This document shows positions 13,992 through 62,188 of a DNA stretch of 64,000 nt, in pieces. The notes beneath the pieces were generated by a model, which saw only the letters and a program-made list of their open reading frames with translations, did no database searches and was not told the DNA's origin. Origin of the DNA: Candidatus Doudnabacteria bacterium (GTDB taxonomy: Bacteria > Patescibacteriota > Doudnabacteria > UBA920); NCBI GenBank assembly GCA_963837465.1, contig CAWINB010000004.1, forward strand, positions 394,853-458,852, in the 5' to 3' direction. The position numbers and the translations under genes were made by a program. Within the stretch, counting starts at the first letter, position 1; each line of letters starts with the position of its first letter.

Positions 13992-14211
13992 ATTTAGCCT
14001 TGTTTAAGGCATATTTTGTATTAGCTAAAAGAGCAATTTTCTGAAATTTGCCCTTTTCTTTTTGCCCAAAAACGGTTATAATTTAAGGGTAGACTTTATT
14101 AGAAATAGCTGTTAAAAACAGCCCAATGAATTGGGCGCGCTACATTTATACTCTCTTGCTAAATTAATTCCGAAATGTTAGAATAAGGCCAAGAGCCTTA
14201 ACCCTAACAAA

Positions 14212-14631
14212 ATGTACCAAATAAAACTGTCCGTCAGTGAGCTTAAAAAGATTAAACAACTTCAGGAACAGGAAAAAAATGTCAGAGTTCTGCGCCGTCT
14301 GGAGGCCATAAAGTTACTGAACCAGGGGCAAAACCATCAGGAGATCGCGGAAGCGTTTAATGTCTGCGTGGATACGATTACAGACTGGATAAAAATCTAT
14401 CAATCCGAGAAACTACAGGGACTACGCAAGCTACAATTTAAAGATAAACGGAAGTCAAAAATTAATGATTATGTAGACCAAATCAAACAAGATGTAAAAG
14501 ACAACACTATTACGACTTTAGCTGAAATGCAGGCCTGGATTAAGGAAAAATATTCAATTGAGATGGAACAAAGCTGGCTGTTTCGCTGCTGTAAAAAAAA
14601 CTCAATTTATCTTACAAAAAAACCCATATAG
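14212..14631 (+). CDS. IS630 transposase N-terminal (HTH) portion, orfA
   Basis: An HTH-like segment (QNHQEIAEAFNVCVDTITDWI) is present; the reading frame is split from the downstream DDE portion. Confidence 0.7.
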   Translation: MYQIKLSVSELKKIKQLQEQEKNVRVLRRLEAIKLLNQGQNHQEIAEAFNVCVDTITDWIKIYQSEKLQGLRKLQFKDKRKSKINDYVDQIKQDVKDNTITTLAEMQAWIKEKYSIEMEQSWLFRCCKKNSIYLTKKPI

Positions 14632-14672
14632 TTCCCAGCGGCGCGCCTGACAGAGAGACCCAGGAAGATTTT

Positions 14673-15248
14673 GTGAAATTAATCTTTAAAACCATAAAGA
14701 AAGCTGATAAAGACAAAGGCATCGTGCTGTTTTTAGACCCCGCTCACCTGGTCCATAATGCTGACAATAGCTACTGCTGGCAACTTAAAGGTAAAAGTGA
14801 AACTAAAAAGGTTCCTTCAAACAGCGGCCGGGAAAGATTAACTGTTATTGGCGCTATCAACCCCGTAGCTTTTAAACCCACTATTTTGACGACCGAAGAT
14901 AACTGTGACGGGCAAATGATGACAATATTCTTAGGGGAAGTCAGAAAAGATTATCCTAAAGCTAAAACCATATACATTTTCCTGGATAACGCCAAGTACA
15001 ACCATAGCAAGCAGGCCAACGAGGAAGCGAAACATCTGGGCATTGAGCTGTTGTTCCTGCCGCCGTATTCTCCCAACTTAAACTTGATTGAACGCCTCTG
15101 GAAATTCATGAAAAAGAAAGTTAAAGCCAACAAGTACTACAAAACCTTTCAGGAGTTTACAATCGCCATACATGATTTCTTTAAAAACATATCTCAGTAC
15201 AAAGCGGAGCTTAAAACACTATTAACTCTTAATTTTGAAATTATATAA
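14673..15248 (+). CDS. IS630 transposase DDE catalytic portion, orfB (split or frameshifted from orfA)
   Basis: Catalytic motifs VLFLDPAH, IFLDNAKYNHSK and LPPYSPNLNLIE match the IS630 D, D(34)E arrangement. Confidence 0.75.
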   Translation: MKLIFKTIKKADKDKGIVLFLDPAHLVHNADNSYCWQLKGKSETKKVPSNSGRERLTVIGAINPVAFKPTILTTEDNCDGQMMTIFLGEVRKDYPKAKTIYIFLDNAKYNHSKQANEEAKHLGIELLFLPPYSPNLNLIERLWKFMKKKVKANKYYKTFQEFTIAIHDFFKNISQYKAELKTLLTLNFEII

Positions 15249-15293
15249 TCGGAATTAATTTAGCAAGAGAGTATACATCAATATTATCTTTGG

Positions 15294-15354
15294 ATCTGGA
15301 TCCCGGATATTTTTTACAGCTTGCGATAACCATCAAGGTAAAAAATTCCGGGAT
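15294..15354 (+). repeat. palindromic repeat family 1, copy A (ggatcccggatatttttt-N23-aaaaaattccgggatg)
   Basis: The inverted arms cccggatatttttt / aaaaaattccggg are shared with copies at 22349-22410 and 23723-23783; the internal 23-mer is about 85% identical to the copy B reverse complement. Confidence 0.8.
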
Positions 15355-15376
15355 GACACAACGGAGTTTCAGCGTT

Positions 15377-16004: not shown

Positions 16005-16086
16005 CAGCGTATAGCGGTTAGGGTATAGCGTTTAGTGCCGACCCTTGACCGCCCTATACGCTAAACGCTAACCCCTATAGGCTAAA
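16005..16086. repeat. palindromic repeat family 2, copy E (ttagcgtttag ... ctaaacgctaa)
   Basis: Arms cggttagggtatagcgtttag and ctaaacgctaacccctatagg are inverted; a related copy lies at 38511-38584. Confidence 0.7.
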
Positions 16087-16289
16087 TGTCCCTAATTCAA
16101 AACATCCAAAAAAAATCCCAAAGTCAAAAACTGGCAATTATGTGGGCCGTGGCCGGAATTGTAGCGGTGTTGCTGGTGGCTGTTTGGGTTATCAGCTCCC
16201 ACTTCCACAAAAACGTACCCGAAGACACAACATTATTCCAAACTATAGGTAAGGGGATTGAGGGTGTGAGAGATAATTATAAGAAATAA
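16086..16289 (+). CDS. small membrane protein, hypothetical
   Basis: A single TM helix is present. Confidence 0.25.
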   Translation: MSLIQNIQKKSQSQKLAIMWAVAGIVAVLLVAVWVISSHFHKNVPEDTTLFQTIGKGIEGVRDNYKK

Positions 16290-22124: not shown

Positions 22125-22348
22125 AAAAAAAGTGATTAGTGGCTAGCGGTTAGTGGATAGAAAACGCAGATTGCTTATTGATACAAAAGTGAGTTTAGCC
22201 ATAAAAAAAAAGTTTGTCAAACGACGCAACAGTAACATATATAAAAAATGGCGTCGTCCTGAGCGAGCCGTTAGGCGAGTCGAAGGATCTATGGTCGCTG
22301 ATTTATCGCGGATAAGGACGCTGAACTGGCGCTGAATTTAGGCTTTGT

Positions 22349-22410
22349 CCATCCCGGAATTTTTTACGTTGACGGTTATCGTAAGCTGTAAAAAATATCC
22401 GGGATCCAGA
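22349..22410 (-). repeat. palindromic repeat family 1, copy B (inverted relative to copies A and C), at the capA 3' end
   Basis: The reverse complement reads ggatcccggatatttttt acagcttacgataaccgtcaacg taaaaaattccgggatgg. Confidence 0.8.
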
Positions 22411-22428: not shown

Positions 22429-23607
22429 TTATGGGTAAAGAACGTTTTGGTCTTGTCCTATTTTATTTAAAATAGTTTTTGTTTCCTCGGCCGTGGCCGG
22501 GCGGGGTTGGGCGGTTTGGATTATGACTGGGATGAGCTCAATGGAATCCAATGTCGCGGGCTGGCGCTGGCCTTGGATATCTGACAGGTTTGCCGCGCCA
22601 GGTGTTTGGGCGTTTTGAAATTTGAAATTTGAAATTTGGATTTTCAACGCCAACCCCTCCATCGTATCCTCACTAAATTCCTGGTCAAACACAAAATTGC
22701 CCAAACTGTAAAAAATGTATTTTCCTTTATATTTTTCAACTGGCTGCTCCCAATGCGGGTGCGCGCCTATGACAATATCCGCGCCGTCATCTATGGCTGT
22801 GTGGGCAAAATTAATTTGCGCCTGGTTGGGCGTGCGGGTGTATTCAATTCCGGCGTGCATTGTGGCGACTACAAAATCACATTCTTGTCTTGCCGTTGTA
22901 ATGGCGGATTTTAGCATGACAGTATTTTCTATGCGCGCCACATAATTGTTGGTGACTTTCCCGCCGTCATTTAAGGAAGAAAACGACGCGCCCACAAAAC
23001 AAATTTTTATGCCGTTGGATGTTACTACTGCCGGAGTCCAGGCTTGATCCAAATTGTCCCCGGTGCCTTCGCGCGCTATGCCCAAACCATCAAGAGTTTT
23101 TATCGTGGCGTCCACGCCCGCAAGTCCCTGGTCAAAAGCGTGGTTGTTGGCCAGGTTAATGATCTGGAAATTGTAATCCTTAAGTCCTGTCAGGTTTTGC
23201 GGAGGGTCGCCAAAAACCAGGGAGTTTCCCCCAATGACTTCGTCCTTGGCTGCCGGCGCCACCGGCCCCTCCAGGTTGGCAAAATTAAAATCCGTGGAAC
23301 GTAAGACACCGGCCATGCCAAGAAACGGGTAATCAACATTGCCGGATTTTTGTATGTCCACGGCCGCGTAGCGCGAAAGCATAATATCGCCGACGGCTAA
23401 AAAGGTTGTGGTCGCGGCGGCAGGAGTTGTCTGATTTTGTGATGATAATTGCCGACTCTCCTGGTAAAAATCGTTTAATGACCCCGATGAAGCCGGTAGT
23501 TTGGAAATGGTGGTACGGGAACCAAAAATATCATGGCGCCAAACTAAAAAACCGCCAATAAGCAGGAGGATAAAAACAGGGATAGTAATTTTCCGGATGA
23601 TTTTCAT
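22429..23607 (-). CDS. CapA/PgsA-family metallophosphatase-like protein (poly-gamma-glutamate synthesis family)
   Basis: An N-terminal signal/TM segment is followed by FLAVGDIMLSRY, a CapA-type calcineurin-like fold. Confidence 0.7.
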   Translation of the reverse strand: MKIIRKITIPVFILLLIGGFLVWRHDIFGSRTTISKLPASSGSLNDFYQESRQLSSQNQTTPAAATTTFLAVGDIMLSRYAAVDIQKSGNVDYPFLGMAGVLRSTDFNFANLEGPVAPAAKDEVIGGNSLVFGDPPQNLTGLKDYNFQIINLANNHAFDQGLAGVDATIKTLDGLGIAREGTGDNLDQAWTPAVVTSNGIKICFVGASFSSLNDGGKVTNNYVARIENTVMLKSAITTARQECDFVVATMHAGIEYTRTPNQAQINFAHTAIDDGADIVIGAHPHWEQPVEKYKGKYIFYSLGNFVFDQEFSEDTMEGLALKIQISNFKFQNAQTPGAANLSDIQGQRQPATLDSIELIPVIIQTAQPRPATAEETKTILNKIGQDQNVLYP

Positions 23608-23722
23608 TTATAGGAGTTTACACCCCGGAATTTTTCACTTCAGCGCCTATTATCAGGTGAAAAATATCCGGCTGGTCCGACAAAGCTTTAGCGACGGCGG
23701 AGGTCCAGGATTAAGCTTGTGT

Positions 23723-23783
23723 CCGGATCCCGGATATTTTTTGCGGCTTATGAATTACCATCGGCGCAAAAAATTCCGGGATG
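23723..23783 (+). repeat. palindromic repeat family 1, copy C, at the capA 5' side
   Basis: The sequence is ggatcccggatatttttt gcggcttatgaattaccatcggcgc aaaaaattccgggatgg. Confidence 0.8.
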
Positions 23784-23833
23784 GACGATTATAGTTGCTA
23801 AAATGTTCTAATGCTTACATGCTCTATGAACTA

Positions 23834-24931
23834 CTACCTAGCCAGCACATACTGCTGTCCGCCCAAATTTTTAACCCGGCCTTTCATTTCCAAAAAAGTC
23901 AGGGCCGAGGTTACGGCCGAAGCTTCCAGTCCGGAAGTTTTTATAAGCTGGTTAATTACCACAGGATCAAAACCAATTAATCTTAGCAAAACCGTTTCTT
24001 CCCTGCTGTCGCCCAAAAGGTTTCGCGCGGCTTGTTGCTGGGGCAGGGTCTTTAAGTTTAAATCTTCCAAAATATCATTGGCCGAGGTTACGGGTTTAGC
24101 GCCCATTTTCAGCAAGTTGTTCGGTCCCTGGCTTTGCGGGCTGTAAATTGGTCCGGGCACGGCGTAGAGCTGACGGTTTTGGTCCAGCGCGTGTTTGGCT
24201 GTTATGAGCGTGCCGCTTTGCAAATCGCATTCTATTACCAAAGTCGCCGGGCAAAGTCCGGAAATAATCCGGTTGCGGGCCACGAAGTTTTGTTTAAAGT
24301 TGGGAGTGCCGATGGGATATTCGGCAAGCAACGCTGCCCCGGCATCCACAATTCGCTTGGCCAATAACGCGTGGTGTTTGGGATAAAGGCTTTTTTCATC
24401 CAGGCCGCCGCCCAGCACCGCTATGGTGCGTCGGCCTTTTTTTATGGCGATTTCGTGGGCCGCGCTGTCCACGCCAAAGGCCATTCCCGAAACCACTACC
24501 ACACCCGCGTCCACCAACGGCTCCGTTAATTGGGAAACCGCTACCCGGCCGTAAGCGGTTATTTGCCGCGTGCCGACCACGGCCACGCACAGCTCGTCAG
24601 GCTGGTCCATTGTTCCTTTGTAATACAAAATTACAGGCAGTTTGGGGATTTCCAACAGCAGCCTCGGATAGTTGGCGCTGTTGTAAGCAAGAATTTTAAT
24701 CCCTTCCCTCTCCAGCTTTTCCTGTTCCTGCTCCAGGTTAATTTCGTCCCTCAAAGCCAAAAATTTTTCCGCGACCTCCGGTTCTATGCCCGCGTTTACC
24801 AGCAGACTCTTTTTAGCTTCAAAAGCCTGCTTGTAATTTTCAAAACCGTTGGCCATTCGCATAAGACGGCCGGGTCCGAACTGGGGCAGCAGGTTAAGGC
24901 CGTGCAAATATAAGGAATCATCAAAAACCAT
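23834..24931 (-). CDS. dprA: DNA processing protein DprA (Smf)
   Basis: The Rossmann-like DprA core has GVDSAAHEIAIKKGRRTIAVLGGGLD and a C-terminal winged-helix. Confidence 0.85.
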   Translation of the reverse strand: MVFDDSLYLHGLNLLPQFGPGRLMRMANGFENYKQAFEAKKSLLVNAGIEPEVAEKFLALRDEINLEQEQEKLEREGIKILAYNSANYPRLLLEIPKLPVILYYKGTMDQPDELCVAVVGTRQITAYGRVAVSQLTEPLVDAGVVVVSGMAFGVDSAAHEIAIKKGRRTIAVLGGGLDEKSLYPKHHALLAKRIVDAGAALLAEYPIGTPNFKQNFVARNRIISGLCPATLVIECDLQSGTLITAKHALDQNRQLYAVPGPIYSPQSQGPNNLLKMGAKPVTSANDILEDLNLKTLPQQQAARNLLGDSREETVLLRLIGFDPVVINQLIKTSGLEASAVTSALTFLEMKGRVKNLGGQQYVLAR

Positions 24932-25140: not shown

Positions 25141-25223
25141 TTTACGAAGTACGAACAGGTGCGAACTTACGAACCAACAAGCGTATCGATTCGTACGTTC
25201 GTAAACTTAGTACTTCGTAAACT
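25141..25223. repeat. solo palindrome of repeat family 3 (tttacgaagtacgaa ... ttcgtacttcgtaaa), the cargo-less form of the GxxExxY mini-element TIRs
   Basis: The two arms match the TIRs flanking the GxxExxY gene at 59828-60316. Confidence 0.7.
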
Positions 25224-25226
25224 CCG

Positions 25227-25775
25227 CTAAGATATTATAAATGTTTGAATCTCTTCTTTAATTTTAGGAAATACTTCTTCCCGAAGTTTTTTTATTTCTT
25301 CATCGCTAAAATTTTCTAGCACAAACACGTCGGTCGGCATGTCCAGCCGGGAGGCGCGGGTGTCCACGCCAATTCTGATTCTGTGAAAATCCTGCGTGCC
25401 CAGGTTATCAATAATGCTTTGCACGCCGTTGTGGCCGGCGGCGGAAGATGACTCCGTGGAGCGCGTAACGCCAAATGGCAGGTCAACCTCGTCGTGGACG
25501 ACCAAAAGGTCTTTGGACAAATCCATTTTATAAAAATTACAGATTACTTTTAAAGCCTGGCCGCTGTCGTTCATATAAGTTTGCGGTTTTAAAAAAATAA
25601 CTTTATCCGGCCCGTTCTGCCAGGTGTAAATTTCGGACTTAAATTCACGGCCCGGTTTGGCCGTCATGAATCCATCGCCGTCATTTAAAATAAAATCCAA
25701 AGCCAAAAAACCCACATTATGGCGCGTAGTCTTATATTTCTCCCCCGGATTTCCCAAACCAACAATAAGTTTCAT
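25227..25775 (-). CDS. pth: peptidyl-tRNA hydrolase
   Basis: The N-terminus MKLIVGLGNPGEKY...RHNVGF is the Pth signature. Confidence 0.9.
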   Translation of the reverse strand: MKLIVGLGNPGEKYKTTRHNVGFLALDFILNDGDGFMTAKPGREFKSEIYTWQNGPDKVIFLKPQTYMNDSGQALKVICNFYKMDLSKDLLVVHDEVDLPFGVTRSTESSSAAGHNGVQSIIDNLGTQDFHRIRIGVDTRASRLDMPTDVFVLENFSDEEIKKLREEVFPKIKEEIQTFIIS

Positions 25776-35341: not shown

Positions 35342-35485
35342 AATTTTAAATGCTAATTTCTAAACTCTAAACAAATTACAATATTTAAATTTTAAGTACC
35401 AAACCTGAAACACGAACACCCCAGTTTTAAATTTAATGTTTATGAGTTAGGATTTGTTTAGTATTTAGTTTTTAAAATTTAGAAT

Positions 35486-36799
35486 TTGATTTTTATTATG
35501 GGTCGACCAAAGAAAAACCAAACCGCGGCCGCGGGCTCCGCGCCGAAAAAAATCCACAGCCTGCCGGCTTTGGAAGATATTACCGCGGAGACAGACCCTT
35601 TATGGGCCGCGATTTTTAACAAACTGGCCAGGTTTTCCCGGGTTTACGGTTTTGAAAAAATTGAAACCCCGCTTTTGGAAGACAGCAGGCTGTACGAAAA
35701 TTTTTACCAAAGCGACCCAAAAGCCCTGGCCGCGGTTGTCCGCCTGGAGATGCCGGGCAGGCAGGCGGCGCTGCGGGCGGATTTACTGCCGGGCGCGCTC
35801 AGGCCTTACTACCAATATAAAATTTACGAAAAATCCACGCTTTCCAAATGGGCTTACTCCGGTTTTGCCGTAAAATCAGACCAAAAGACCGGGGACTTGC
35901 TCAGTGATTACCAGTTCGGCTTTGAAGTTTTCGGCTTGTTTGGCCACCTGACCGAAGCGCAGACCATAGGAGCGGTCTGGGAATTTTTGCGGAGCCTGGG
36001 ACTCAAAGATTCACTGCTGGAAATCAATCACATCGGGCAGGAGGAGTGCCAGGAAGCCTACAGCCGGACTCTGCAGGAGTATCTGTCCGCAAAAAAGTTT
36101 CAACTGTGCGATAATTGCAACGAGCAGCTTAAAGGCAGGATCTTAAACGTTTTCCGCTGCGATAATCTGGACTGCCAGGCTCTGCTTTCGGAAGCGCCCA
36201 CGGTTTTGGATTTTTTGGACGATGACAGCCGCAAGCATTTTACCAGTATTTTGGAAGCCTTGGATGAATTAAGGGTGCCTTACCAGCTGAATTCGCTTTA
36301 CGCCGGCCCAGCCGGGTACGGCAAAACCAATTTGGTTATCAAGTATAAAACCAAAGACGAGAATGTTGTGATAGGCGAAGGCGGCTACCACGACAGTTTA
36401 ATCCAGAGCCTCAGCGGCAAAAGCTATTGTTGTTTTGGTTTTTCCGGCAGCTTGTCCATGGTCCGCGAGCTTTTGGAATTAAATAAAATTACAGTATCCA
36501 GGGAGCATAAGAGCGATGTATTTTTGGTGCCGCTGGGCGAGCTGGCCGCCAAAAAAGCCCTGCGGCTGTTTAGGGATCTTACGGCTGAAAAAATTTCGGT
36601 GCACGACCATTTTGGCAACAGCGGCGTGAAAAATCAGCTTAAACAGGCGGAAACCCAGGGATCGCCCATAGCTTTGATAATGGGGCAAAAAGAGGCGGTG
36701 GATGAAATGGTAATCCTGCGCGACGTAAAAAGCGGCATGCAGGAAATTATTTCTTATGATAAAATAGTGGCGGAAGTGAAGAAAAGATTGGGGAGATAG
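35486..36799 (+). CDS. hisS: histidyl-tRNA synthetase-like protein (class II aaRS catalytic core with anticodon-binding domain; divergent motif 2; Cys-rich insertion)
   Basis: A motif-3-like GEGGYHDSL and a C-terminal anticodon-binding-domain pattern (VFLVPLGE...IALIMGQKEAVDEMVILRD) are present. Motif 2 is degenerate. An inserted CDNCNEQLKGRILNVFRCDNLDC is present. Confidence 0.6.
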   Translation: MIFIMGRPKKNQTAAAGSAPKKIHSLPALEDITAETDPLWAAIFNKLARFSRVYGFEKIETPLLEDSRLYENFYQSDPKALAAVVRLEMPGRQAALRADLLPGALRPYYQYKIYEKSTLSKWAYSGFAVKSDQKTGDLLSDYQFGFEVFGLFGHLTEAQTIGAVWEFLRSLGLKDSLLEINHIGQEECQEAYSRTLQEYLSAKKFQLCDNCNEQLKGRILNVFRCDNLDCQALLSEAPTVLDFLDDDSRKHFTSILEALDELRVPYQLNSLYAGPAGYGKTNLVIKYKTKDENVVIGEGGYHDSLIQSLSGKSYCCFGFSGSLSMVRELLELNKITVSREHKSDVFLVPLGELAAKKALRLFRDLTAEKISVHDHFGNSGVKNQLKQAETQGSPIALIMGQKEAVDEMVILRDVKSGMQEIISYDKIVAEVKKRLGR

Positions 36800-36802
36800 C
36801 TG

Positions 36803-37274
36803 GGGTAATGACAAAAATGAGCAAAAATAATAAAAATGACAAAAATGGCGGACAGAGATTTAAAACAAAGGACAAAGAAGTTTGGTATTGAAGTAATTAA
36901 GCTAGTTCAGCAAATTAATGAAAAAGGTCCGGTTGCGGCAAAAATAATCGCCAATGGGCAGCTAATAAGGTCGGGTACCGGAGTAGCCGCGAACTACAGA
37001 GCTGCGTGCAGATGTAAGTCCAGAAAAGATTTTATTTCAAAAATTGGTACGGTAATTGAAGAAGCGGACGAAACTCAGTTGTGGCTTGAGTTACTTATTG
37101 AATCAGGACTTATAAAAGCGGAATTAATTAAAGAGCTTTTACAGGAATCAGGAGAGATAACAGCGATCATGACTTCATCAAAAGATTCGGCAATTAGAAA
37201 TCAACAAGGCGCGAAAGAATAGAGCGGTCGTATTTTTGTCATTTTTTTAATTTTTATTATTTTTGTCATTACCC
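36803..37274 (+). mobile_element. mini-element: four-helix-bundle protein gene flanked by roughly 45-bp terminal inverted repeats (gggtaatgacaaaaat ... aaaaatgacaaaaatg)
   Basis: The left TIR (36803-36848) and the reverse complement of the right TIR (37231-37274) are near-identical. The element sits between hisS and the HIT gene. Confidence 0.7.
36836..37222 (+). CDS. four-helix-bundle protein (TIGR02436-like; '23S rRNA intervening-sequence protein' family)
   Basis: The helical pattern and the motifs LIRSGTGVAANYRAACRCKSRKDFISKI and EADETQLWLELL are characteristic. Confidence 0.7.
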   Translation: MTKMADRDLKQRTKKFGIEVIKLVQQINEKGPVAAKIIANGQLIRSGTGVAANYRAACRCKSRKDFISKIGTVIEEADETQLWLELLIESGLIKAELIKELLQESGEITAIMTSSKDSAIRNQQGAKE

Positions 37275-37281
37275 TATCCTT

Positions 37282-37617
37282 ATGGATGATTGCGTATTTT
37301 GTAACATAGTCAGCAAAACCATAGACTCCGAGTTATTTTTTGAAGACCCGGATTTAATAGTTATAAAGGATATTTTGCCCAAAGCGCCCGTGCATCTTTT
37401 GGTTATTCCCAAAAGGCATATTGTCAGCATCGGCGAAATGTCAGACGCTGATCAGACTTTGGCCGGCGATATGATTTTAACGGCCAAAAAAATGGCGGAA
37501 AAATTTAACGTGGCCGAAAGCGGCTATAAGCTGGTTTTTAACGTTGGCACCGATGGCGGCATGGTAGTGCCGCATTTGCATTTGCATTTGCTCGGCGGCA
37601 AGAAATTGCCGGAGTAG
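37282..37617 (+). CDS. HIT (histidine triad) family protein
   Basis: The N-terminus is CVFCNI and the triad is HLHLHLLGG. Confidence 0.85.
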   Translation: MDDCVFCNIVSKTIDSELFFEDPDLIVIKDILPKAPVHLLVIPKRHIVSIGEMSDADQTLAGDMILTAKKMAEKFNVAESGYKLVFNVGTDGGMVVPHLHLHLLGGKKLPE

Positions 37618-37622
37618 GGCGC

Positions 37623-37683
37623 TGGAATTATGAATTAGGAAGTATGAATTAGGGTCATAATTCCTAATTTATACTTCCTAATT
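37623..37683. repeat. palindromic repeat family 4, upstream copy (ggaattatgaattaggaagtat ... tcataattcctaatttatacttcctaat)
   Basis: The interleaved inverted repeats are related to the copy at 37996-38063. Confidence 0.6.
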
Positions 37684-37746
37684 TTTTTATGTTGCCAAAA
37701 TAAGACTATCCTGTTATAATTATTCCATCCTAAATCCGAAAGGAGA

Positions 37747-37995
37747 GTGAGTGTTTTGGTAGAAGTAAAGAAAAAAGACAACGAAAGTTTTGACAGCCTG
37801 CTTAGGCGTTTTAACCGCAAGATCCAGCAAAGCGGCGTGCTTATACGCGCCCGCAGAACCCGATTTTTTGACCCCCCCAAGTCCAGAAACCTGCAAAAAG
37901 TCGCCGCCCGCCGCCGCAGCCAGATAAAAGCGGAAAAAGAAGAGCTGAAAAAAATGGGCAAACCGGTTCCGGTAAGGCGTTTCGGGAGAAGATAA
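37747..37995 (+). CDS. rpsU: 30S ribosomal protein S21
   Basis: The sequence ...SFDSLLRRFNRKIQQSGVLIRARRTRFFDPPKSRN... is S21-like. Confidence 0.85.
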   Translation: MSVLVEVKKKDNESFDSLLRRFNRKIQQSGVLIRARRTRFFDPPKSRNLQKVAARRRSQIKAEKEELKKMGKPVPVRRFGRR

Positions 37996-38063
37996 TCGAA
38001 TTATGAAGCATGAATCAGGAATTTTGAATCGCCATTTCCTAATTCATAATTCCTGATTCCTAA
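37996..38063. repeat. palindromic repeat family 4, downstream copy (gaattatgaagcatgaatcaggaatt ... aattcataattcctgattcc)
   Basis: These inverted repeats flank rpsU on its other side. Confidence 0.6.
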
Positions 38064-38067
38064 TTCA

Positions 38068-38510: not shown

Positions 38511-38584
38511 TTAGGGTTTAGCGGCTAGGGGTTAGCGTTTAGTGTTCCCGTTAATCCCTAAACGCTAAACGCTAAACGCTAATT
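38511..38584. repeat. palindromic repeat family 2, copy F, with three tandem ctaaacg units
   Basis: The left arm gggtttagcggctaggggttagcgtttag is inverted against ctaaacgctaaacgctaaacgctaa on the right. Confidence 0.7.
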
Positions 38585-39860: not shown

Positions 39861-40067
39861 ATGCGCAATTGGTTTATGAATGATAAACATTTTGCTAATA
39901 ATAATGAAAAAGCTATTTGGCAACTGGAACAAATGGTGAATTTTGGTTTGGCCCGGGGGGAGAAACTTAACAAGAAACAACTGTTAAAATTTTGGGACAA
40001 CCTGAGCCTGGATCCGTCCAAAAAGAAATTTTTACAGGATATAATTCCCGAATTATGGACATCTTAA
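39861..40067 (+). CDS. small hypothetical protein (possible remnant of a partner gene of the adjacent AbiEii-like toxin)
   Basis: It is 68 aa counted from MRNWFMNDKHF; the ORF track entry 39606.. begins inside ftsA. Confidence 0.25.
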   Translation: MRNWFMNDKHFANNNEKAIWQLEQMVNFGLARGEKLNKKQLLKFWDNLSLDPSKKKFLQDIIPELWTS

Positions 40068-40847
40068 GTTCCAGGCAGATTTTACTTTTGGAAAGTTTTG
40101 GCAAAGAAAAATTCCTGAAACAAAACTTTTATCTGACCGGCGGCACTCCCTTGGCCGCTTTTTATTTGCGGCATCGTTATTCCGAAGACCTGGATTTTTT
40201 CAGCGAAACGGAATTTGATGTTTTAGAGCCTGTTTAATAAATTGCTTTTGAAGGCGATCTGCCAGAGGCGGAGGAGCTAAAAAGTTGAAGAAAAATGAGG
40301 CGATACCAGGGATTATCGGTGAATTTTGATGAGACTTTTGCAGCCCAATTCCTGAAATTGCGGCCAAAATGAATTTTTAAACAGGCTCTTAGACATTACT
40401 TCTTATTTCGGTAAAGTTAAGCAGGAAGCGGGCTTTGAAAAAATTGATTTGCAGCAAAGCTTTAACCGCAATCTTTATTTTTTAACTTTTCCGGAGGAAG
40501 TTTTGAAGCTGGAGTTTACCTATTTTCCTTTTCCCCGCATTGAGCGCGGGCCGGAACATTATGGAATTACCACTGACAGCCTTACGGATATAGCGGTCAA
40601 TAAATTATTTTCTGTCTACCAGCGTACCAAGGCCCGCGACTACATAGACTTATATTTTATTTGCAGGCGGGAAAATTTTACAATCCAGGATTTAATCGTC
40701 AAAGCCAGGGCCAAGTTTGATTTCCACATTGACCTGCTGCAGCTGGGGACAAAGTTTTCGCGGGCCGCCCAGGCAACGGATTACCCGCGAATGATAACAA
40801 AAGTTACCGACTCCGAATGGCAAGATTTCTTTAAGGATGAAGGATGA
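40055..40847 (+). pseudogene. AbiEii/AbiGii-family nucleotidyltransferase toxin gene, disrupted (two ORF fragments at 40055-40237 and 40449-40847)
   Basis: The N-terminal fragment has LTGGTPLAAFYLRHRYSEDLDFF (AbiEii/DUF1814 signature) and the C-terminal fragment continues the family. About 210 nt between them lack a continuous frame. Confidence 0.6.
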
Positions 40848-44041: not shown

Positions 44042-44113
44042 ATGATATAATACAAAGTCAATATTATAAAGCGCCAGATAAAAACATCATTATTGGTGTT
44101 TTTAGCCGGCCCT

Positions 44114-45389
44114 TTAAGGGCCTGTTGCCGAATGCTTAAATTGGTAAAAAGATAAGCAAGCTGATTTTAGTCTAACCCTTTTTAGGATTAAGTTTGGTTA
44201 TCTTCGTATCAATTGTTTTGTTTGAGCGGTTTCGGAGGGAAATTTCAGGATACTTTTTCCTCTCCGGACGCGCTCCATCTCAAAGCCCCAATCTAGGGGC
44301 TTGTTTGTATTGGCAGAATGGTTATGGCTTTTTTAAGGTTATGGCAAATGGCTTCAAACGTGACCTGGAAAAATACTTTAGCCCGGCCTCTGAATTTGGC
44401 TCGTTTTCTGCATTTGGAGAAGGTGCCTTCAAAGGGCATTCTCATGGCGGATATCCAGCGATCCAAATCTTTGTTCTTGGTTTTGTTATTGTTCTTTCTG
44501 ATAGTTCCCGCGTGCAGACCGTGAGCTTTTAAAACATTATCGTTTTCTTTGCAGTCAAACAGCTTGTCGGAAAATACCATACCCTGTTTGGGGCAAATAC
44601 TGTCGGTAGTCTTGTAATCAGGTACATTAGCGGCGGTTACGGCCAGTTTGGTAATTAAACCGTATCTCATGTCCACGGCCTCGTGCCGCTTGTAGCCAAA
44701 CCAAATGCTGGTCTTGCTTTTGGCTCCCCAGCGGGCGTCTTTGTCGGTGGCGTAGTTTTTAACGTTTTTGTTGTTAAGTTTTTCCTCTCCGTCGGCTATG
44801 GCTTTGTCCCGTTCATCCCAGAGGGCGGTTTTGGTAATGATACTGGAAGCATCGATGAAGGTAAAAACATTGCCGACTAAGCCAAGTGATTCTAAATGCT
44901 TGTTAATACCGGTAAAAATATCGTAGAGTTTTTGTGCGCCAATTCTCTTTCGTAGCTTGCAAAAGTAGGTATGGTCAGGAGTTTGTTCTAGCAGGCCAAA
45001 GCCAGCAAACCAGCGGACAGCCATATTTTCCTTTACGCACTTTTCCATTTCCCGGTCCGAGTAGTCTTCCCAAAACTGGATAAGCAAAGCCAGAAAGCCT
45101 TTTTCTATGGCTATGCCGGTAGTGCCTAAATCGCTATACAAAGAACGTAAGGGAGAAACAAACTGCTCAAAGTCGATGATTTCCTTAAGTCTCCTAAATG
45201 GATGAGTGGCCTCTATTATTTTGTTAAAGATCTGTTGTTCTGTCTGCAAAAGAAACGGGCTGGTTTTATCATTGGGCTGTAACATTTTTTTATTTTCCTT
45301 AATGTTTACAGCTTAATTATATCATTTTAAAAACTTTTTTACTTGAGGAAAACTTAATATTTTTTGCCATTCGGCAACAGTCCCTTTAA
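44114..45389 (-). mobile_element. IS5-family insertion sequence with roughly 22-bp terminal inverted repeats
   Basis: Left end ttaaagggcctgttgccgaatg (44114-44134) matches the reverse complement of right end cattcggcaacagtccctttaa (45368-45389). Confidence 0.65.
44293..45285 (-). CDS. IS5-family DDE transposase
   Basis: The DDE_Tnp_1-like pattern has FIDASSIITK ... DKLFD ... and a C-terminal basic tail. Confidence 0.75.
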   Translation of the reverse strand: MLQPNDKTSPFLLQTEQQIFNKIIEATHPFRRLKEIIDFEQFVSPLRSLYSDLGTTGIAIEKGFLALLIQFWEDYSDREMEKCVKENMAVRWFAGFGLLEQTPDHTYFCKLRKRIGAQKLYDIFTGINKHLESLGLVGNVFTFIDASSIITKTALWDERDKAIADGEEKLNNKNVKNYATDKDARWGAKSKTSIWFGYKRHEAVDMRYGLITKLAVTAANVPDYKTTDSICPKQGMVFSDKLFDCKENDNVLKAHGLHAGTIRKNNNKTKNKDLDRWISAMRMPFEGTFSKCRKRAKFRGRAKVFFQVTFEAICHNLKKAITILPIQTSP

Positions 45390-59828: not shown

Positions 59829-60316
59829 TTTACGAAGTACGAAAATTTACGAACTTACGAACATGACGCCTTCTATTTTGCGGCGACAGGATTTAATTCA
59901 TCCTGAGCTAAGCTATAAAATAGTAGGCGTCCTTTTAAATGTTTATGGTCAGTTAGGCTATGGCTTATATGAGCGCGCTTATCAGAAAGCTGTTGGCGTA
60001 GGTTTTAAAAAGGCAGGCTTATTGTTTGTGGAACAGCTCTACGCTCCGATTGTTTTTGAGGGTACTGTTGTGGCTAAAAATTATCTGGACTTTTTGGTGG
60101 AAGATAAGGTGGCCGTTGAATTAAAACGCGGAGACAAGTTTGTTAAAGCCCATATCGATCAATTGTATAATTATTTAGTGGCTAAAGATTTACGGCTGGG
60201 AATTTTGGTTTATTTTGCTCCTAACAGGTTGCACTACAAAAGAATTGTGAACCTGCCCCAAGATCCAAAGGTCAAATAAGTTTCGTAAGTTCGTACCCTT
60301 TTCGTACTTCGTAAAC
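59828..60316 (+). mobile_element. mini-element: GxxExxY-family gene flanked by roughly 36-bp near-perfect terminal inverted repeats
   Basis: Left TIR gtttacgaagtacgaaaatttacgaacttacgaaca (59828-59862) and the reverse complement of the right TIR (60280-60316), gtttacgaagtacgaaaagggtacgaacttacgaaac, are about 90% identical. Confidence 0.75.
59863..60279 (+). CDS. GxxExxY-family protein (PD-(D/E)XK nuclease-like fold, TIGR04256-like)
   Basis: The sequence YERAYQKAVGVGFKKAGLLFVEQLYAPIVFEGTVVAKNYLDFLVEDKVAVELKRGD has the GxxExxY-like pattern, with an acidic core (D...E.K). Confidence 0.7.
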   Translation: MTPSILRRQDLIHPELSYKIVGVLLNVYGQLGYGLYERAYQKAVGVGFKKAGLLFVEQLYAPIVFEGTVVAKNYLDFLVEDKVAVELKRGDKFVKAHIDQLYNYLVAKDLRLGILVYFAPNRLHYKRIVNLPQDPKVK

Positions 60317-62011: not shown

Positions 62012-62021
62012 GTTTGCAATT

Positions 62022-62120
62022 ACAAATTTCCAATTTCAAATGATAAAATAAGTTTCGGTTAGGAAATTTGATGCTTGCGATTTTATTTGAAATTTGAAAT
62101 TTGGCATTTGAAATTTTTAA
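62022..62120. promoter_or_regulatory. repeat array in the nrdR-nrdJ intergenic region (candidate NrdR or other operator sites)
   Basis: Inverted arms caaatttccaatttcaaatg (62022-62041) and tttgaaatttgaaatttgg (62086-62104) are present, with three tttgaaattt direct repeats at about 11-bp spacing. Confidence 0.3.
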
Positions 62121-62188
62121 ACTAATTAACTTGTTTATTCGTCCATCATAATATTGATGTCGTAAACATCACCAGAAAATAAAACAAT

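Follow-up and report, generated by a model that had tools for sequence, protein, structure and literature searches.

Why does a small, intact protein gene lie inside a long inverted repeat in the gap between two housekeeping genes? The question is raised by a 64,000-nucleotide stretch of a Candidatus Doudnabacteria genome (assembly GCA_963837465.1, contig CAWINB010000004.1, positions 394,853 to 458,852; hereafter the window, numbered from its first letter), in which a gene for a four-helix-bundle (4HB) protein is enclosed by inverted arms between hisS and a HIT-family gene. Intervening sequences (IVSs) of 23S rRNA that bear an S23p open reading frame (ORF) occur in Coxiella burnetii and Leptospira, classically at helix 25 or 45, and rRNA IVSs have remained an unsolved puzzle for over 30 years. 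TIGR02436 and TIGR04256 genes are among the commonest multicopy "hypothetical" small genes in bacteria; to our knowledge, no function has been assigned to the S23p/Avd-like and GxxExxY families, both very large. Because the gene-plus-arms unit recurs in other gene gaps of related bacteria, it has the look of a portable cassette, one of a kind that is widespread but hardly described. The reading that we favor, with a probability of roughly one half, is an IVS-type cassette: a functional 4HB gene nested in a long A/T-rich hairpin, inserted as a block of ∼464 bp at the hisS-HIT spacer, processed by RNase III, and spread by way of its arms.

A 4HB gene within a long hairpin

The 4HB gene runs on the forward strand from a probable start at 36845 to 37222 (125 amino acids; stop codon TAG at 37220 to 37222). 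An in-frame ATG at 36836 would give 128 amino acids (ORF 36836 to 37222); the downstream start is the likelier because homologues begin MAE/DKDLK. The sole Pfam/NCBIfam matches of the ORF were TIGR02436 (E = 1.1e-19; 70.6 bits, cutoff 24) and PF05635 (E = 2e-13; 50.9 bits, cutoff 33.8), in agreement with a first-pass annotation of this DNA that had assigned the protein to a TIGR02436-like family known from 23S rRNA IVSs. An AlphaFold2 monomer model (pLDDT 92.5) has helices at residues 3 to 30, 33 to 58, 63 to 89, and 95 to 125. Foldseek matched it to 2RLD at template modeling (TM) scores of 0.77 to 0.88 and also to 2GSC; phmmer found 2RLD at an E value of 1e-15, and both structures were deposited with five chains. 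The ORF is under strong purifying selection: the ratio of nonsynonymous to synonymous change (dN/dS) between copies was 0.04 to 0.09, with synonymous sites saturated (third-position identity, 0.37 to 0.53). The 4HB protein is therefore made and matters. By codon usage the gene is compositionally foreign, with a third-position GC content (GC3) of 0.34 against 0.55 ± 0.07 in the 36 long ORFs of the window, about 3 standard deviations (SD) below. Thousands of relatives of the protein were found; PADLOC and PHROGs returned no match, and viral contigs held two weak relatives only.

The gene is embraced by an A-rich left (5′) arm at 36807 to 36847 and a T-rich right (3′) arm at 37230 to 37270 (both given on the forward strand), the right arm being an imperfect complement of the left. 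Both in-frame ATGs fall inside the left arm, where the first-pass annotation had placed the start codon. The left-arm sequence at this locus is GGGTAATGACAAAAATGAGCAAAAATAATAAAAATGACAAAAAT(G) (36803 to 36846/7), the A-rich segment from 36803 to 36847 reads GGGTAATGACAAAAATGAGCAAAAATAATAAAAATGACAAAAATG, and the right-arm sequence is ATTTTTGTCATTTTTTTAATTTTTATTATTTTTGTCATTACCC (37232 to 37274; the inverted copy overall spans ∼37230 to 37274). The left arm is composed of ∼9-nt units, AATGACAAA / AATGAGCAA / AAATAATAA / AAATGACAAAAATG. Each arm opens and closes with the 12-mer AATGACAAAAAT, the two copies per arm lying 27 to 28 nt apart. By motif count, the outer forward copy is at 36807 to 36818 and the inner one at 36835 to 36846, with inverted copies at 37232 to 37243 and 37259 to 37270. 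These four exact copies, two per arm, are the only ones in the 64-kb window; with one mismatch allowed, five matches were found against 1.2 expected, a number reached in 0 of 100 shuffles. Since the 12-mer is confined to the hisS|HIT unit within 64 kb, its reading as an uptake-signal-like motif was rejected.

When the arms are aligned locally, 39 of the 43 columns are Watson-Crick pairs (score 60; relative to shuffled flanks, z = 21). The inverted arms are real; a match confined to A-rich low complexity is what the first-pass annotation had named as refuting them. A repeat search returned a 33-nt arm core with 85% complementarity plus overlapping registers, and in the minimum-free-energy RNA fold of 36795 to 37285 the arms pair as a single long terminal stem (z = −4.6). 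At the hisS|HIT locus the arms are 44 nt long, and the full span, 36803 to 37274, measures 472 bp, as first annotated; pairing extends outward to 36803 (GGGT) on the left and 37274 (ACCC) on the right and, by the fold, to 36801. The family-wide boundaries came from alignments of units in different genomic contexts, nine at the left ends (5′ boundary, 36807) and eight at the right ends (3′ boundary, 37270). Across the nine contexts, shared sequence runs from AATGAC (36807) to GTCATT (37270), and the flanks beyond are unrelated. The family-conserved unit is 36807 to 37270 (464 bp), and the outer GGGT/ACCC pairs are therefore specific to the hisS|HIT locus. AATGACAAAAAT was invariant in all aligned units (nine left arms and eight right arms). 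As the arm 12-mers are invariant while synonymous sites are saturated, the arm sequence itself is constrained, beyond mere pairing ability.

The unit is packed tightly between its neighbors, which are those first annotated. The hisS gene (35486 to 36799, forward strand) ends with its stop codon 7 nt 5′ of the unit, and the ATG of the HIT-family gene (37282 to 37617, forward strand) lies 11 nt 3′ of it. A scan of 36600 to 37500 for intrinsic terminators (a short G+C-rich stem followed by a T run) yielded no terminator-like site, and promoter-like matches were not above those in shuffled sequence; a promoter or terminator role for the arms was rejected on these grounds.

Occupied slots, empty slots, and gene-less hairpins

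The hisS|HIT slot is occupied in two metagenome contigs (L002 and L003; such numbers label the compared loci) by an 88%-identical copy with nearly the same arms. An 86%-identical copy with the same arms lies between TraC-like and VirB4/TraG-like genes (L001). In L058, the order LepB-hisS-HIT-S21-YqeY-FtsA is kept (hisS 59% identical), the 4HB gene and AATGAC arms are at LepB|hisS, and the hisS|HIT gap holds a gene-less hairpin of different sequence. A 66%-identical copy with a variant arm vocabulary, AATTGACAT/AATTGTCAA, sits at PilB|PilC in L202 to L204, and a relative whose PilB is 80% identical (L074) carries a gene-less AATGAC hairpin at exactly that position; L006 and L023 are likewise occupied and gene-less, respectively, 3′ of orthologous genes. 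At hisS|HIT itself, the 4HB gene and AATGAC arms are absent from seven syntenic relatives (L058, L195, L196, L197, L199, L200, and L201); in the last six, hisS is 62 to 70% or HIT 67 to 68% identical and the hisS|HIT spacers measure 38 to 106 nt. All units are co-oriented with both neighbors and abut the neighbors' stop and start codons. Among syntenic relatives, gene and arms are a discrete block, present or absent as a whole. The first-pass annotation had suggested looking for a hisS|HIT junction without insert in relatives and for further repeat-flanked copies of the gene, and both were found. L058 and L200 share the loop GGCTGCATTTAARTCA (L058, 4850 to 4870) at the hisS|HIT slot, with differing arm units.

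We then surveyed 76 metagenomic 4HB relatives of 45 to 80% identity, mostly from outside the Candidate Phyla Radiation (CPR), with a flanking-repeat threshold of z of at least 6. Inverted repeats flank 80% of these genes but none of 54 control small ORFs from these loci. The arms are built of short tandem units, including (ATTGCGG)n/(CCGCAAT)n, (AGTGCGG)n, (AATGCGG)n, (ATTTCGG)n, and (ATTGCAAATTTCAA)n, and a distant CPR paralogue has yet another vocabulary. Such tandem-unit arms are characteristic of the 4HB family as a whole. Arm vocabulary tracks protein relatedness, being common to more than 50% of pairs at 70% protein identity or above and to at most 6% of pairs below 60%. At soil-type loci, it recurs nearby in 3 of 60. 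Relative to the ORF, the arms are also strand asymmetric, with a 5′ arm that is purine rich in 57 of 65 units and richer in G than in C in 54 of 59; the nominal P values of these counts overstate independence, since the units are phylogenetically related.

A second gene family shows the same architecture within the window. The sister unit (59829 to 60316, with its gene at 59863 to 60279 on the forward strand) directly follows ftsZ, has arms of ACGAA units (z = 19.7), and carries a PD-(D/E)XK protein of the GxxExxY family (TIGR04256/PF13366, PDDEXK_3); it is the only other unit of such size and anatomy in the window. It is almost certainly the one meant by the first-pass annotation, whose statement that two unrelated families share one architecture holds. 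TACGAA-unit flanks were found on a 79%-identical homologue in the same ftsZ slot and on a 59%-identical one between methylmalonyl-CoA mutase and CoA transferase; in a 52%-identical homologue from Bacteroidota, TACGAA repeats are visible but align only weakly in the local alignment (z = 2.2). In the GxxExxY family, repeat sequence and protein go together across phyla. S23p and GxxExxY genes share a hairpin architecture outside rRNA, with arms that follow the protein lineage, and in the case at hand gene and arms come and go as one block, set between conserved housekeeping genes. The further claim, a common class of single-gene selfish elements, stands as to the common class; "selfish" is only plausible, given the strong purifying selection.

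These data bear on one alternative, that an ordinary resident gene lies between the halves of a spacer hairpin (a terminator or processing site) and that its patchiness reflects old vertical inheritance and repeated loss. Most spacers of the LepB-FtsA gene cluster, in the window and in relatives, do carry unit-built hairpins, whose vocabulary turns over fast between genomes; the strong purifying selection and the retention of the unit at the same slot in L002 and L003 also accord with residence. However, the slot is empty in seven relatives, the L058 copy is one gap upstream, and the same arms occur in unrelated operons. The GC3 of the gene is foreign to the window, soil-type arms are specific to the 4HB gene, and control small ORFs are never flanked in this manner. 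We consider a resident gene highly unlikely.

Hairpins of the same vocabulary also occur without a gene. In species-representative genomes, 109 stretches were found in which two AATGACAAAAAT motifs stand 10 to 25 nt apart. About 46 compact gene-less hairpins of 62 to 130 bp were found in Doudnabacteria, "Saccharibacteria"-labeled, and other Patescibacteria genomes, each laid out as an A-rich arm, a loop of 10 to 40 nt, and a T-rich arm, with ∼9-nt units of the forms AATGACAAA, AATGAGCAA/AATGAACAA, AATTAAAAA, AATAATAAA, and AACGACGRA. They are placed flush between genes. Several occupy orthologous slots whose flanking proteins are 45 to 85% identical, with the vocabulary kept and the unit order scrambled, and single genomes hold one occupied unit plus several gene-less hairpins. 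AATGAC-type arms are thus not private to the 4HB gene. The motif (A)CTGCRG or GGCTGCAT was seen in the gene-less loops of L019, L032, L037, L049, L054, L066, L074, L078, L088, and L091. Matches to the arm pattern from outside the CPR were set aside as tandem minisatellites of period 9 to 33, apparently unrelated to the hairpins. Such AATGACAAAAAT-bearing minisatellites occurred in Bacteroidales, Ignavibacteria, Flavobacterium, Parashewanella, Cohnella, and others, with periods of 33 (L013, L027, L085, L100, L110, and L112), 24 to 25 (L010, L012, and L056), or 9 to 13 (L017, L026, and L034).

Likeness to rRNA IVSs and possible routes of movement

The Coxiella 23S IVS is 428 to 444 nt long, and its 28-bp terminal stem closes a loop that contains an S23p ORF; three tandem heptamers (GACAGAT) stand immediately 5′ of the ATG, RNase III excision occurs at the first repeat, the ORF is decaying and probably untranslated, and ORF-less short versions exist (PMC4990558). 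ORFs of the 23S_rRNA_IVP type also occur in 16S and 23S rRNA insertions of CPR bacteria (PMC11270868). Judged by its anatomy, the closest known counterpart of the hisS|HIT unit is this ORF-bearing 23S rRNA IVS, here outside rRNA. The two have the same protein family in the loop, a similar size (464 to 472 nt here), terminal inverted repeats that form a long ORF-enclosing stem, tandem repeats directly 5′ of the ATG (of AATGACAAA type here), a start codon at the inner edge of the stem, and ORF-less short versions. They differ in the state of the ORF, which is decaying in Coxiella but intact and under strong constraint here, and in location, since the unit sits between protein-coding genes; it is therefore no IVS by definition, despite the point-for-point match in anatomy. 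Rfam found only a tRNA in the window, matched no family to the unit or to 36 related loci, and placed no hairpin there inside rRNA. We found no description of the hairpin-nested architecture outside rRNA in the literature, of which our coverage was incomplete, so that an earlier description is possible.

Avd-like proteins, too, fall into Pfam family PF05635 (PMC10053308), and Avd of the diversity-generating retroelement (DGR) of Bordetella phage BPP-1 is a four-helix bundle that the model matches at target-normalized TM scores of 0.76 to 0.78 (Foldseek, 4DWL and 8UB7_E). Sequence identity, however, is ∼14%, and the neighbors here are housekeeping genes (LepB, hisS, HIT, S21, YqeY, and FtsA). 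No ORF with a YxDD motif was present in the window, and no template or variable repeat lay near the unit; a role as a DGR component was ruled out because there is no reverse transcriptase nearby. TIGR-Tas arrays were found not applicable, since these require Tas proteins and box C/D motifs.

In the IVS-type reading, the cassette would be cotranscribed with the host operon, because it leaves no room for a promoter or terminator of its own. Its arms, rich in purines on the 5′ side and in pyrimidines on the 3′ side, would pair into a long A·U helix of ∼45 bp, a putative RNase III substrate as in the Coxiella 23S IVS. Cleavage would free the 4HB mRNA, with its start codon at the inner end of the stem, and separate the flanking cistrons, and insertion would consequently do the host little harm. 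Movement between gaps would most likely proceed through the arms, which would recombine or undergo gene conversion with resident hairpins that share their vocabulary. The cargo protein may recognize its own repeat units, and its action on them might move the unit instead; a conventional transposase seems the less likely mover. Both the RNase III processing and the mode of movement are steps that we infer.

Several results weigh against this reading. The window contains no signature of an RNase III gene. Among 58 stems, G·U wobble pairs numbered 45 versus 54 A·C mismatches (P = 0.42), a comparison that reveals no sense-strand RNA signature; with no G·U excess, wobble-pair asymmetry was discarded as proof of an RNA stem. 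In some copies, such as L103, the middle of the arms is only partly complementary. The arm units are also more conserved in sequence than RNase III, or a stem alone, would require, and so something recognizes the sequence itself. The idea that gene-less loops are relics of the ORF 5′ end was rejected (mean score 11.9 versus 12.2 for shuffled loops); in the same test, orientation concordance was 18:15, and only the L084 loop retains GATCTTAA. Finally, the empty hisS|HIT junctions are mostly unrelated spacers rather than AATGAC hairpins, L200 with its TGACA-type units being the exception, and so a resident target hairpin is not evident at hisS|HIT.

The conserved arm sequence leads to a different proposal, a cargo-driven repeat system with a logic like that of repetitive extragenic palindromes (REPs), their paired hairpin forms (REPINs), and REP-associated tyrosine transposases (RAYTs). 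The encoded protein would bind the flanking units and promote copying or maintenance of the hairpin family, so that the arms would serve primarily as arrays for protein recognition and only secondarily as an RNA stem, the binder being the 4HB pentamer or, in the sister unit, the GxxExxY nuclease. As in REP/REPIN-RAYT systems, a single gene is flanked in inverted orientation by a dispersed repeat family that is often gene-less. Consistent with this proposal, arm units are conserved despite synonymous saturation, each arm has two invariant 12-mers at a set distance, vocabulary covaries with protein identity, TACGAA-unit flanks accompany all GxxExxY homologues of 52 to 79% identity (from CPR, another organism, and Bacteroidota), one occupied unit stands beside several gene-less hairpins per genome, and gene-less hairpins at orthologous slots keep the vocabulary with scrambled unit order. 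In contrast to those systems, the cargo here is not a Y1 (HUH) transposase, and, where REP palindromes fold on themselves, each flank here is one arm of a single large hairpin. Moreover, neither catalysis nor sequence-specific binding of nucleic acids is known for the 4HB fold, the covariation of vocabulary and protein could be coinheritance or a host-lineage effect, and soil-type arm vocabulary seldom recurs nearby. A cargo-driven system is, in our judgment, unlikely.

The term "terminal inverted repeat" (TIR), used in the first-pass annotation, is apt in that the arms are inverted, and is not supported in its transposon sense: no target-site duplication was found, nor, within the window, a matching transposase. 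We suggest that the supposed TIR should rather be read as the hairpin arm of an IVS-like cassette. A conventional nonautonomous TIR transposon, that is, a miniature inverted-repeat transposable element (MITE) that carries a passenger gene and is mobilized in trans by a DDE transposase from another part of the genome, would nonetheless account for the inverted ends, small size, sharp boundaries, presence or absence at orthologous sites, several insertion contexts, and shorter gene-less derivatives. The window also holds two insertion sequences, an IS630-family element at 14144 to 15278 (30-nt TIR of 97% identity; a helix-turn-helix [HTH] ORF and a DDE_3 ORF, likely a frameshift) and an IS5-like element at 44113 to 45389 (DUF772 and DDE_Tnp_1; 22-nt TIR). 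However, the TIRs of both are unrelated to the hairpin arms, and no consistent target-site duplication, including a TA target, was seen at 9 occupied and ∼46 gene-less units. The ends are modular arrays of ∼9-nt tandem units that change in sequence with the cargo lineage, and 80% of the family across lineages share the architecture with completely different arm sequences, which a trans-acting transposase does not explain. The strand asymmetry of the arms relative to the ORF and the holding of gene-less hairpins at orthologous slots between flanking proteins only 45 to 85% identical also argue against a transposon, which we regard as distinctly unlikely.

We offer a broader conjecture tentatively, as doubtful on present evidence: one unrecognized class of mobile elements, each a single gene nested in a hairpin, would carry TIGR02436 4HB and TIGR04256 GxxExxY genes as cargoes, have tandem-unit arms recognized by the encoded protein, and spread without a transposase into operon gaps and rRNA helices. 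Classical rRNA IVSs, together with many of the hairpins dispersed between genes, would then represent occupied and decayed copies of it. Such a class, if real, would account for much of the long AT-rich hairpin content between genes of CPR genomes, and the annotation of thousands of small ORFs would improve. What IVSs are and how they move becomes a testable question.

Other repeat structures of the window

The vocabulary of the sister unit recurs in the window in a gene-less hairpin of ACGAAGT units at 25141 to 25226, between pth (25227 to 25775) and dprA (23834 to 24931), both on the reverse strand. Other long intergenic hairpins lie at 35342 to 35485, 38518 to 38582, 16016 to 16100, and 62012 to 62125, with units including CTAAAC, CTAAACG/TTAGCG, and AAATTTC/ATTGCAA; the last vocabulary also flanks 4HB genes in soil metagenome loci (L118 to L151).

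The S21 gene (37747 to 37995) was considered as a similar unit and rejected. Its apparent inverted repeat, which mimics a 450-bp TIR-bounded unit, consists of two separate self-folding hairpins of one vocabulary (GAATTAGGAA units) at 37621 to 37685 and 38004 to 38067, the first followed by a T run and then by a promoter-like TTGCCA-17-TATAAT. S21 belongs to the syntenic core, and the hairpins on its two sides differ from each other in relatives; it is therefore no mobile unit.

A PGA_cap (capsule synthesis) gene (22429 to 23607, reverse strand) lies between ∼64-nt inverted repeats (22347 to 22410 and 23722 to 23786) built on CCGGAATTTTTT/CCGGATATTTTTT, and a third copy of this arm, 95% identical, stands at 15295 to 15355 beside the IS630-family element. 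In the region 39992 to 40847, fragments of an AbiEii-type nucleotidyltransferase toxin (40449 to 40847 and possibly 39992 to 40237) are split by a stretch that contains an imperfect inverted repeat of 42 nt (40199 to 40240 and 40374 to 40415), and the whole looks like a disrupted toxin-antitoxin gene.

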